From: a virus
Lineage: Duplodnaviria; Caudoviricetes
IMG/VR virus record: IMGVR_UViG_3300042539_001740
Length of the DNA: 64,000 bases
Reading direction: 5' to 3' (one strand)
The number at the start of each line of letters is the position of its first letter. The first letter of the stretch is position 1. The position numbers were made by a program, and so were the translations under genes. Shown here one piece after another: positions 60,149-63,930 of the stretch. Under the pieces are notes generated by a model. That model did no database searches. It saw only the letters and a program-made list of their open reading frames with translations, and was not told the DNA's origin.

Positions 60149-62046
60149 TTTGATAGAGGTTTATTCATAATATAATCGTATAATTTTCTTTCGTCATTTT
60201 TGATGTTTTGAATCATACTTGGTCTAATGTGTCTATAGTTAAATAATGGTAGAGGTATTCTAACTCCCTTATACCCATTATTTCCTATTCTCCACCAAAA
60301 ATCATAATCCTCCCACCCTTTCATAGATTCATCATAACCTAACACATCGTCCCAAGCTTTTTTTCTGAACAAAGAACAACTTACAATAAAAGGCCCTCTT
60401 TTTAATCTACTCAATGACCATTCAGGTCTTTTTTCCATACCTTGTATAAAACCAATATGATTTGTATCACAATATATTGGACTCAAATTCTCATTCTTCT
60501 CAGCTTCATAAATTGCAAATAACAAATAGTTTTTATCAAATGTATCATCAACATCGTGTGGTAATATATAATATCCTTGTGAGGATTTAATAGCTGTATT
60601 TCTTGCTGCAGAAAGTCCTTTATTTCTTTCGTGATGTAAAACTTTAATATCACTATCTAAATTATTTAATATTTCCAAAGTTTTTGTATCACTCGACCCA
60701 TCATTAATAACGATAATTTCTTTATTTGAGTATGTTAAATCTTTAGCCGATTTTATTGCCTCAGGTAAATATTGACCATCGTTAAAACAAGGGATAATGA
60801 TACTAACTAGAGGACCTAAATTTTTAACGTATTTTTCTGTTAAAAATTTCAAACTCTTTTGATAGTTCTCTTGTTTAAATTGTTCAGAAACTTGTTGGGT
60901 TATATTGTTTTTATATTTTTCAATTATGTTATCTATGTTATTCAAATTACGAAACCAGTTCAAGTCAAATAAAAAACTATCATTACCAATCGACTCAAAA
61001 TTTTCAATTGGTGTTGTTGGGTAACACTTTTGAATAAAATCAGTTAATTCATCATCGAAAAGTTGAATTACATCAAAATCAATTTCTTTTATTTTATACA
61101 ACTGATTTATTTGTGTTGGTTGAAGACCATTTGGTGTGTTAATTTGCCATTTACCATCACCTAATTTATAACCGAAAGGTTCATTTATGGAACTTAAATT
61201 TATTCCTTCTCTTTTAGCTAAACTTGTTATTCTATTTCCCAAATTTGAACATATGTACAAATGATGACCTTTGTTTTTAAGTGACTTCACAAATTCGAAA
61301 ATGAATTTTTCTTTATTTGATTCCCCATTAAAATTAGTGGTTGAAATTAATATTTTTAATTTCTCGTTGGGGTGTATTTTTCTATTTAAGAATACAGGTA
61401 AATTATCTTCATATTTTGATGTGAATTTAATTCTGTTTTCCTCCCATTTAGAATTAGTCATCCCAATCGACTTATGATTAATTCTAATCTCTGTTGTTAC
61501 ACCTATTTTAACACCCGACAAGTAGTTATCAAAACAAAAAGATACATCATAAAAATGAAATCCTTGAAACTCTTCATTGAATGTTTTTTTTATTCTATTT
61601 TTGTCAATAGCAAAAAACAATCCATCAACAACAACAACTTCCTCTAAATTACTCCCCAAATCTTGTGAATATGATGATAACCAAGTTTTACCATTATGTG
61701 TATGTGCTACTTTTCCATACATTTTTTTCATATCTTCCCACCATCTACCCGATGTGGACAAAAACTTTGTACCCGCAACACCAACTACTCCATAATCTAA
61801 ATTTCTATCAAAAATTTTGAGTAGTTTGTTACCCCATTGATTAGTTTCAATAGTCAAATCATCATGACAGAAAACAACTATACTATTTGAGGCTTGTGAT
61901 AAACCTCTATTATATGCCGAGGTTAGAGATTCACCATTATTAACGATTTCAATAACTTCCAACTTGTTATGTAAACCAGAAGTTTTAATTAAATGTTTTT
62001 TATGTTCTTCATTTGAAGTTCTTGTACAATATATTATAGTAATCAT
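60145..62046 (-). CDS. Multi-domain glycosyltransferase (GT2-like + GT4 N-terminal-like + GT2)
   Basis: VFCHDD, DGLF, FHFYD; C-terminal VSIIIPCFND, INDGS, HDVDD, WEDYDFW. Confidence 0.85.
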   Translation of the reverse strand: MITIIYCTRTSNEEHKKHLIKTSGLHNKLEVIEIVNNGESLTSAYNRGLSQASNSIVVFCHDDLTIETNQWGNKLLKIFDRNLDYGVVGVAGTKFLSTSGRWWEDMKKMYGKVAHTHNGKTWLSSYSQDLGSNLEEVVVVDGLFFAIDKNRIKKTFNEEFQGFHFYDVSFCFDNYLSGVKIGVTTEIRINHKSIGMTNSKWEENRIKFTSKYEDNLPVFLNRKIHPNEKLKILISTTNFNGESNKEKFIFEFVKSLKNKGHHLYICSNLGNRITSLAKREGINLSSINEPFGYKLGDGKWQINTPNGLQPTQINQLYKIKEIDFDVIQLFDDELTDFIQKCYPTTPIENFESIGNDSFLFDLNWFRNLNNIDNIIEKYKNNITQQVSEQFKQENYQKSLKFLTEKYVKNLGPLVSIIIPCFNDGQYLPEAIKSAKDLTYSNKEIIVINDGSSDTKTLEILNNLDSDIKVLHHERNKGLSAARNTAIKSSQGYYILPHDVDDTFDKNYLLFAIYEAEKNENLSPIYCDTNHIGFIQGMEKRPEWSLSRLKRGPFIVSCSLFRKKAWDDVLGYDESMKGWEDYDFWWRIGNNGYKGVRIPLPLFNYRHIRPSMIQNIKNDERKLYDYIMNKPLSK

Positions 62047-62345
62047 ATTCCTGTTGAGCCAAATCCGTTATCACCTCTGTCTTTTTGACCTAAATCTTTC
62101 TTTAGTTCCAAATCAACATATTTTCCGTTTATTACTGGACATAAAACTGCTTGTGCAATTTTCATTCCTTTTTTTATTGTTACTTGGTCTGAATTCGTAT
62201 TAAAAATTATAACTTTTACTTCACCCAAATAACCGCAATTATGTATCAAATGACTATTACAAAAGAAGTTATGATTATTACTTACTGTTATATCATAAGT
62301 TTGTTTTTTTTCTGATGTTATTTTTTTAATCTTCGTTGTTTTCAT
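62043..62345 (-). CDS. dut: Split intein C-fragment (36 aa, 62345-62238) fused to dUTPase C-extein
   Basis: ...YDITVSNNHNFFCNSHLIHN|CGYLGEVKV...IAQAV...RGDNGFGSTG (dUTPase motifs 3-5). Confidence 0.93.
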   Translation of the reverse strand: MKTTKIKKITSEKKQTYDITVSNNHNFFCNSHLIHNCGYLGEVKVIIFNTNSDQVTIKKGMKIAQAVLCPVINGKYVDLELKKDLGQKDRGDNGFGSTGI

Positions 62346-63219
62346 ATATAAAATTTTTTAGTTCTTCAACTGAGTAAAACAATTTATAGTTTGGGTATTC
62401 TTTTAATGCAAATTGTTGTTTTACTAATACTTCCTCAGTTTCCCACCCCTTTAGTTCAATTAAAAAGATTTTACCATTGGCTAATTCAATGTAAAAATCA
62501 GGAACATAGTTTCTGTGTAGTCCATTATAAAAATATCTTATTCGAATACCATGTTTGTTCGTCCATCTTTTTATAAAATTAACTGAGTCAAAAAAAATCA
62601 TAGTTTCCAATTCATATGAGGATGAATATAAAAAGGTTTCATTTTCCTTTGATTCATATTTTCCTGTTTTATATTTGTTACTTGTATTACTTAATTTACC
62701 TGTACTATATAATTCAGAAATAATTTTTGACATATTTTCCCTAAACTCTTTTCCTTTTTCACATCTACCATCACCCAACACTTTTACGATTGATTTGATT
62801 GTTTTTTGTCTATACTCCTCATTTTCCCATCTTTCTTTTGATGTTTTTGATATTTTTTTTATTCTATCTTCAGATTTGACCCACTCTTTAAATTTTTCAC
62901 TTTTATGCCAATTGGTAAAACCTGAATAGATTTCGGGTGTTTCTTTATGTCTCTTTTTTATAATATTAGACATTTTATTTTTGAATTCAGATTTATTATG
63001 GGATACTTGTCTAGATTTTGTCATTTTTTGTTTATATTCAGTATCACTCCATTTAGTTTTTTGTTTCTCTGAAAATATTGTTGCATATTCTTTTGATTTA
63101 ACTAAATTACCTGGATATAACTCTTTGTATTCTTTTGAGGTTAATTTATGTTCAAATTTTAAATGTTCAACAATTGAATATTGTTTTTCAATCCCACAAA
63201 TTTTACATTTTACTGACAT
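62326..63219 (-). mobile_element. Free-standing homing endonuclease (C2H2-like Zn finger + repeats + TnsA-like PD-(D/E)xK domain) between the intein halves
   Basis: CKIC..HLKFEH; KWSDTEYKQKM and RWENEEYRQKT repeats; YVPDFYIELANGKIFLIELKG. Confidence 0.82.
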
Positions 63220-63252
63220 ACTTATTATCTTTATTGATAAATAGTATCTTGG

Positions 63253-63930
63253 TTAAAAAAATACAATTATCTCATCATTTTCTTGTAAATCTTTGGCCAA
63301 AACAATCCCTTTATTTGTATAAATTTCTGAATTGGGGGTTACCTCAAGTACACCTTCTTCAGTCTCAATTTTCAATATATCTTGTACATTAGTGTCAAAA
63401 ATTTTAAGAACAATATCTTTTTCAATTTCTAAACTTTTTTCATTGAATGAAAATACTATATCATTTATTTTTAAATCCTTAATATGTTTTTCACCATTTA
63501 TAGTTAAAATTTTCATATCTTCAGAAAAACAATCCACAGTTCCTGGTGAATTTAATACAAATAAACCCTGATTTATTGCTAAACCACTTTTTGACCTTAC
63601 TTGTATTTCATAACCATCTTTGATGTCAAAGGCCAATCCTGTTGGTATTAAAGCTCTACCTAATGGGTTTACAACAATTTCTTCTGTTGAGTACAAGTCA
63701 AAGCCTGAGTCACTTATATAATTGTAACTAGGGTCAATAGCATCGGGATTAAGTTTAGTGTAACCAAGTATTTGTTTGGGGACATAATTCAACATTTCTT
63801 GTTCTAGTTGTTTAATGTCAACTCCATAAGTTTCATAGATAATATTGTAATCTATTTCATCTTCCTTTCCTTTTAAATAATTTTGTAAATCATCGACTTG
63901 TTTAAACAAATCTTTCATATTTCCTTGCAT
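63253..63930 (-). CDS. dut: dUTPase N-extein (133 aa) fused to split intein N-fragment (92 aa, 63531-63256)
   Basis: SGFDL, VRSKSG, SPGTVD|CFSEDMKILT (intein block A)...LEVTPNS (block B), then TAA. Confidence 0.93.
   Translation of the reverse strand: MQGNMKDLFKQVDDLQNYLKGKEDEIDYNIIYETYGVDIKQLEQEMLNYVPKQILGYTKLNPDAIDPSYNYISDSGFDLYSTEEIVVNPLGRALIPTGLAFDIKDGYEIQVRSKSGLAINQGLFVLNSPGTVDCFSEDMKILTINGEKHIKDLKINDIVFSFNEKSLEIEKDIVLKIFDTNVQDILKIETEEGVLEVTPNSEIYTNKGIVLAKDLQENDEIIVFF

Follow-up and report, generated by a model that had tools for sequence, protein, structure and literature searches.

How does a phage whose dut gene lies in separate pieces obtain an intact dUTPase? This question is raised by a 64,000-nucleotide (nt) stretch of DNA, here called the window, which is part of the 194.5-kb IMG/VR virus record IMGVR_UViG_3300042539_001740, estimated to be 66% complete. 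The DNA is that of a giant freshwater phage of roughly 300 kb, from lake water. Its dut gene comprises three tightly packed minus-strand open reading frames (ORFs), which hold the N-terminal half of the dUTPase with an N-terminal intein half (IntN), a nuclease, and a C-terminal intein half (IntC) with the rest of the dUTPase. The likely answer is that a composite selfish element, consisting of a split mini-intein and a free-standing PD-(D/E)xK nuclease gene, resides in dut, and that the enzyme is rebuilt by protein trans-splicing.

Organization of the split dut gene

The components of the locus are listed below, with a slash marking the junction between extein and intein.

63930-63253, minus strand: ORF1, 225 amino acids (aa), dUTPase residues 1-133 followed by the 92-aa IntN; ends ...NSPGTVD/C-F-S-E-D-M...VFF, then TAA
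63532-63930, minus strand: N-extein, dUTPase residues 1-133; PF00692 positions 4-63 (28.1 bits), PHROG 135 positions 130-226
63256-63531, minus strand: IntN, 92 aa; block A from Cys1 (CFSEDMKILT), block B TPNS; weak PT-HINT, Hint and TIGR01445 matches
63253-63255, minus strand: TAA stop closing the N-fragment; all 8 related lineages have TAA, TGA or TAG at the equivalent place
63220-63252, minus strand: spacer of 33 nt; holds the 22-nt element tactatttatcaataaagataa; a small hairpin is possible just before the nuclease ATG
63219-62326, minus strand: ORF2, 297-aa nuclease ORF, a putative free-standing homing endonuclease; N-terminal CxxC...HxxxH finger, helical repeats, C-terminal PD-(D/E)xK nuclease
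62345-62043, minus strand: ORF3, 100 aa; 36-aa IntC ending HLIHN, then CGYLGE; dUTPase residues 134-197
62238-62345, minus strand: IntC, 36 aa; blocks F and G (YDITV...NNHNFFCN.HLIHN); Lys-rich start; ATG 20 nt inside the nuclease ORF
62043-62237, minus strand: C-extein; Cys+1, GYLGE completing motif 3, then motifs 4-5 and TGA; PF00692 positions 71-129 (46.8 bits)
62238-63531, minus strand: whole mobile insert (IntN, spacer, nuclease gene and IntC), 1,294 bp; missing from near-isogenic alleles

The insertion site is directly after the motif-3 Asp, in the context GTVD/(S/C)GYxGE. The N-extein thus ends inside motif 3, with GTVD as the first half of the motif and its Asp as the -1 residue. The first-pass annotation, made from the letters of the window, had placed dut in two ORFs, one reading SPGTVD/C-IntN (92 aa)-TAA and the other IntC (36 aa)-HN/CGYLGE. 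Both are found at the same coordinates, and the dUTPase profiles are divided at the break and run on continuously over it, PF00692 from 4-63 in ORF1 to 71-129 in ORF3 and PHROG 135 from 130-226 to 228-290. Each half exceeds the PF00692 cut-off (28.1 and 46.8 bits vs 22), and the window copy keeps all dUTPase motifs. The reading frames of ORF3 and ORF2 differ, and the two share 20 nt (62326-62345); the TGA of the C-extein overlaps the ATG of the next gene. The charge complementarity that had been noticed between the intein halves is also present, with a net charge of -10 for IntN and +4 for IntC. The GC (guanine plus cytosine) content of the insert is 20-26%, lower than the 31% of the exteins and of the genome.

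The conserved core of the dUTPase is preceded by an N-terminal extension of about 55 residues (window 63766-63930), which is acidic and probably helical. Intein-free alleles share this extension.

Conservation of the split

One rival explanation holds that the real gene is continuous and that the break stems from faulty assembly or sequencing, or from an intron at the RNA level. The same three-gene layout is present in 19 IMG/VR loci found in a scan of viral contigs, which represent 8 lineages at 56-75% identity. The stop after IntN is common to all of them, and the end of the nuclease ORF overlaps the start of IntC by 14 or 20 nt. The strongest argument that the split is not an assembly artefact is this conservation, since the layout with its spacer and nuclease ORF, the stop codon, and the frame-shifted overlap are kept in 8 diverged lineages. 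The first-pass annotation had reasoned that two independent breaks, the TAA at 63253-63255 and the frame-shifted 20-nt overlap, speak against a sequencing error, and the conservation of both bears this out. A search with the ORF1 protein returns 4,396 relatives, and among the 120 best clusters, 98 have an IntN tail of 91-99 aa.

The identical stretch is also present in independent assemblies of many samples and years, namely in Logan contigs of 19 lake-water or freshwater metagenome runs dated 2016-2024, some of which may be the source sample. Logan contigs of two lake-water runs cover the entire stretch with zero differences. The TAA and the change of frame are thus confirmed at the level of contigs, and not at that of raw reads. 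No RNA-labelled run is on record among the runs with this stretch. An intron is contradicted by an Rfam scan that found none and by the reading frame of the HINT halves, which is that of the exteins. No point in favour of an artefact or intron was found, apart from the fact that the comparison rested on assemblies, and the probability that the real gene is continuous is negligible. The Rfam scan gave no signal of group I or group II, and a group I intron, considered separately, was rejected on the in-frame HINT halves and a +1 codon that differs between alleles.

The 22-nt element of the spacer is almost invariant in an intergenic alignment of lineages whose coding regions are 25-45% different. 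This suggests that it is a regulatory element carried by the mobile insert. The spacer hairpin is not significant by energy (-8.1 kcal/mol, z = -1.6). A scan for sigma-70 promoters and terminators performs no better than on shuffled sequence, and a candidate late-type promoter upstream of the nuclease is not confirmed.

The empty site and the predicted product

Uninterrupted dUTPases of 197-198 aa occur among the ORF1 matches. One of them, P0059, shares 195 of 197 residues with the product predicted from splicing (residues 1-133 of ORF1 joined to residues 37-100 of ORF3), and one of its two differences is Ser instead of Cys at +1. The predicted spliced junction peptide is ...NSPGTVDCGYLGEVK. 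The earlier proposal that splicing restores an intact motif 3 is thus matched by a natural intein-free allele. This allele, 99% identical to the predicted product, also resembles solved dUTPases (E 6e-32), and its motifs 3 and 5 align with theirs.

Four independent intein-free contigs (L082, L083, L084, and L087), which derive from two NCBI metagenome assemblies and several Sequence Read Archive runs, have DNA that is 96-99% identical on both flanks. Contigs L082-L087 are 97-99% nucleotide-identical up to the end of the N-extein. In blastn of the four against L001, the alignment breaks at L001 positions 1902 and 3197. It stops precisely where the intein begins, at its first codon, and picks up again immediately past the +1 codon, which defines the insert of 1,294 bp. 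The +1 codon itself is TGC (Cys) where the element is present and AGT (Ser) where the site is empty. A contig of run X20, from a slightly diverged relative, is joined in the same way without the intein; the run is possibly RNA, a label that is a guess, and the contig does not represent this allele.

Purifying selection and damaged copies

The dUTPase might be dead, its gene broken by a selfish element and its pieces drifting while the host Dut suffices. Damaged C-exteins in two lineages and the missing block B His of the intein (described below) would agree with such decay. The median ratios of nonsynonymous to synonymous substitution (dN/dS, Nei-Gojobori) point the other way, in lineages whose synonymous sites are near saturation. 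They are lowest in IntC (0.09) and IntN (0.14), followed by the N-extein (0.17), the C-extein (0.20), and the nuclease (0.21). With a range of 0.09-0.21, all five segments are under purifying selection. The complete set of motifs in the window copy and its 99% agreement with an intact allele also contradict decay, as does the persistence of the element across dUTPases that share only about 30-40% identity. A dead dUTPase is therefore very improbable.

The two damaged copies differ in kind. In L003 (L003:2076-2246, L003:1262-2095), the C-extein is 56 aa long after an internal deletion of 44 residues, and the nuclease is short by 20 residues. In L011 (L011:3349-3648), an in-frame TAA removes dUTPase motif 5 (GFGSTG), and the motif is readable just downstream in the same frame. 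Copies of this type may be decaying or may be errors of small contigs.

The intein halves

The class-1 catalytic residues outside block B are strictly conserved. Cys1 of block A is kept in 98 of the 98 IntN cluster representatives. In IntC, D18 and H25 (block F), H35, N36, and Cys+1 (C37) are invariant in all nine lineages. TIGR01443 (intein_Cterm) matches IntC with 19.1 bits and passes its cut-off of 15.6. IntN weakly matches solved inteins, which include a BIL domain, DnaB, Spl DnaX, and NrdJ-1. The matches of intein models to IntN that stay below cut-off are nonetheless real.

Block B is different. Inteins normally depend on the block B His for the first acyl shift, as it activates the N-terminal scissile bond. 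The TPNS of the window IntN aligns with TGNH of the Spl DnaX and DnaB inteins, and the position of the His is taken by Ser in 79 and by Thr in 19 of the 98 representatives. The block B Thr is kept, and no conserved His occurs anywhere in IntN among these representatives. A wider, exhaustive IntN search at the level of 50% identity finds at least 36 clusters of C-terminal IntN on dUTPase-type N-exteins with the junction ...xD/C, and all 36 of these dUTPase-site clusters have Ser, Thr, or Lys instead of the His. The -1 residue in the dUTPase-site split inteins is always the motif-3 Asp, which is the catalytic base of the dUTPase (Asp90 in the E. coli enzyme, for instance). T[PG]NH is retained in the nearest split inteins of other hosts, whose junctions are radical-SAM-like (CxxxCxF/C) and helicase-like (...DE/C).

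The nearest relatives of IntN outside dUTPases (P0224, P0225, P0243, P0250, P0249, P0293, and P0301) are also C-terminal and apparently split. Their junctions look like radical-SAM CxxxCxx/C and helicase ...DE/C.

The association of the two halves is predicted by docking. When each half is given five extein residues, the interface score ipSAE is 0.86, against 0.00 for the best control. Of 80 solved complexes, 58 attain that mark, as do 2 of 110 mismatched pairs, counts that are approximate in view of the custom alignments used. The contacts agree to at least 91% between three runs, and the predicted local distance difference test (pLDDT) of the partner is at least 80. The result expresses likeness to a working split intein, not proof, and may draw on the model's memory of similar solved complexes.

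Such an association would also be expected if the intein halves no longer splice and serve as non-covalent docking domains that hold the dUTPase pieces together. The clade-wide absence of the block B His fits this explanation, and there is a precedent in the intein-derived interaction domains of the fragmented Aeh1 NrdA, which assemble without splicing (PMC3045599). Docking, however, would not need Cys1, Asn36, Cys+1, the penultimate His, or the block F Asp and His, all of which are invariant. As the insert lies right after the motif-3 Asp, an unexcised domain of 128 residues would presumably occupy the active site. That block B has lost its His is also compatible with splicing, as a very small subset of natural inteins splices without it, compensated by another residue (PMC6333167). 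Docking without splicing is therefore considered improbable.

Proposed mechanism and its weight

In the trans-splicing explanation, the two dUTPase halves would be translated separately, and the overlap of 14-20 nt would probably couple the ORF of IntC and the C-extein to the end of the nuclease ORF. The acidic IntN and the basic IntC would then assemble into one HINT fold. Class-1 protein trans-splicing by Cys1, Cys+1, and Asn36 would yield a dUTPase of 197 aa, which would differ from the intein-free enzyme solely by Cys for Ser at the junction. An N-S acyl shift with Ser or Thr at the place of the block B His would require a compensating residue. During co-infection, the nuclease would cut intein-free dut alleles, and the element would spread by homing.

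Several points weigh against this explanation. All of the support for trans-splicing of the dUTPase halves is comparative or predicted. The dUTPase-site IntN does not have the block B TxxH of class-1 inteins. The models on the IntN side score below their curated cut-offs (TIGR01445 17.7 vs 24.5, PF14890 23.4 vs 35.8, and PF07591 23.3 vs 27.7). In two lineages out of nine, L003 and L011, the C-extein is damaged. The comparison of sequencing runs used assembled contigs instead of raw reads and is given little weight. The activity and target of the nuclease on the intein-free site are predicted from the coexistence of empty and occupied alleles, the discordant distances of intein and extein (described below), and the low GC content. 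Finally, the earlier claim that the dUTPase must be rebuilt presupposes a single dut gene. There is no second dUTPase and no second intein in the 194.5-kb record, but this record is only about 66% complete, which leaves room for another dut gene elsewhere in the phage.

The missing His may also point to a variant of the splicing chemistry. It is possible, though rather doubtful, that the dUTPase-site split inteins form a large clade which performs the first acyl shift without the block B His, helped by the -1 Asp, by the Ser, Thr, or Lys replacement, or by both. This would be an extein-assisted variant of class 1, and its 92 + 36 aa pair may be orthogonal. The assistance of the acyl shift by the -1 Asp is speculation.

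The nuclease

ORF2 reaches the cut-off of no Pfam family. Its match to the NCBIfam BPTD_3080 restriction endonuclease has an E of 9e-11, and there are weak matches to TnsA-like models, Pfam DUF1064, and PHROG resolvase/endonuclease models. The residues E203, D241, E255, and K257 are invariant (SYE...PDF...ExK). The AlphaFold2 (AF2) model is confident only in the N-terminal CxxC...HxxxH region and in the C-terminal domain, the latter with a pLDDT of 82-95. Its top Foldseek matches are the TnsA structures 1t0f and 1f1z, with a borderline E of about 1e-3 and a probability of 1.00. A profile search against solved structures gives no sequence match, and no GIY-YIG or Vsr model is matched in the Pfam, PHROG, NCBIfam, and structure searches. 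Motif and model together indicate a TnsA/DUF1064-like PD-(D/E)xK enzyme, which is a putative homing endonuclease.

The nuclease has 68 close clusters, all at least 54% identical, and all 68 appear to belong to this split-intein element. Remote homologues are found in Bacillus phages. In Bacillus phage SP-15 (KT624200.1; L094:2492-3298), a homologue with 25.5% identity over 90% lies inside a two-piece major capsid gene. It is likely a homing endonuclease of this family that is carried by an intron.

Lateral movement of the element

Is the element inherited with its dUTPase, or does it move? Among 94 full-length N-fragments, the distances of IntN and extein are weakly correlated (Spearman 0.36). 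In some pairs, IntN is 2% different and the conserved 80-residue extein core is 41% different. In other pairs, the exteins are 5% different and IntN is 25% different. Between L004 and L019, the proportion of synonymous differences (pS) is 0.35-0.43 in the cassette versus 0.70 in the exteins. The dUTPase-site clusters also span dUTPases that are quite unlike one another, SIGLID and AGVID being among their motifs. L093 and L090, which have very different dUTPases, contain the same nuclease family at about 31% identity, and the IntC of L093 is near-identical. These comparisons establish, at the level of sequence, a lateral movement of the element between diverged dut alleles. As the intein and extein distances disagree and the same element occurs in different dUTPases, it behaves like a homing element that has long been resident at one site.

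A diverged dUTPase split intein without a nuclease gene is present in L091 (L091:3001-3897) and L092. Its halves are 60 nt apart, an ordinary AAAGGAG ribosome-binding site precedes IntC, and the position of the block B His is Lys.

In metagenomes, dUTPase motif-3 inteins are abundant under uninformative names, so that the element is not rare. Phage metagenomes of freshwater and groundwater commonly contain it, with no annotation beyond "dUTPase" or "hypothetical protein".

Comparison with known systems

Fractured genes: Dassa et al. 2009 (PMC2677866) described fractured genes with split inteins and a free-standing endonuclease in gp41, NrdA, NrdJ, IMPDH, DnaE, ligase, terminase, and others. 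These genes share with dut the co-oriented order of N-half with IntN, endonuclease ORF, and IntC with C-half. The endonuclease overlaps IntC by 6-69 bp in 15 of their loci, and by 20 nt in the present dut gene. A conserved element and a possible hairpin upstream of the endonuclease, the phage or metagenome origin, and a nucleotide-metabolism host broken at a conserved active-site motif are also common to both. In contrast, dUTPase is outside the eight host types of Dassa et al. 2009 (PMC2677866). Their endonucleases are GIY-YIG or Vsr-like, whereas that of the dut element is of the PD-(D/E)xK type, and the dut block B lacks His.

gp41-1: The best solved match of IntC is gp41-1 (PDB 6QAZ/6RIZ), which aligns over the full IntC (6QAZ residues 92-128, E 4.7e-6) with the same split point. 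The sizes of about 90 + 36-37 aa, the acidic IntN, and the basic IntC are also shared. However, the sequence similarity is low, gp41-1 is not among the IntN matches at E <= 1, and its host protein is another. Its own block B reads SEEH and thus contains the His.

Tko CDC21-1: The orthologues of the Tko CDC21-1 intein (PMC6333167) are class-1 inteins without the block B His, which presumably splice by means of a compensating residue. They are contiguous archaeal helicase inteins with Leu at -1, whereas the dut clade is split, phage-borne, very large, and always has Asp at -1.

PD-(D/E)xK nucleases: TnsA, DUF1064, and T7 endonuclease I share the E...PD...ExK motif and the predicted fold with the dut nuclease. 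The SP-15 endonuclease shares a typical homing context, being a nuclease homologue inside a two-piece capsid gene. The similarity to TnsA, DUF1064, and T7 endonuclease I is remote, and the association with a split intein appears to be specific to the nuclease family of the dut element.

Novelty and significance

The first-pass annotation had suggested a new host protein and insertion site for a split intein, and neither the searchable literature nor 50,697 GenBank phage records contain an earlier case. No dUTPase intein was found among the top-ranked papers treating inteins and dUTPase or dUTP, InBase being outside this search, and Novikova et al. 2016 do not mention one. A megablast of the region against GenBank phages returns nothing, and tblastn of the N-fragment against the 50,697 records returns uninterrupted dUTPases only. 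IntN alone matches UvsW, ribonucleotide reductase, and terminase inteins in GenBank phages, and never dut. The fractured-gene arrangement is known. What is new is dUTPase as the host, insertion right behind the motif-3 Asp, the family of the nuclease, and a block B that has lost its His throughout the clade.

With these features, dUTPase, at the site after the motif-3 Asp, would join the short list of genes that are kept in pieces and rebuilt by natural split inteins, and a third nuclease family is tied to fractured genes. The clade offers dozens of natural split-intein variants without the "essential" block B His, which form a series for studying the catalysis of that step, and it is a source of possibly orthogonal protein-ligation tools. 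The occupied and empty homing sites within one phage population are a clean natural example. Genome annotators currently miss the element.

Region downstream of dut

The synteny between the window and the intein-free contigs stops about 24 nt past the dut stop (window 60145-62046 vs L084:905-2329). Past dut, the window has a glycosyltransferase-like gene of 633 aa, and the intein-free contigs have one of 474 aa. The glycan-gene region thus varies between phages that are otherwise 97-99% identical.

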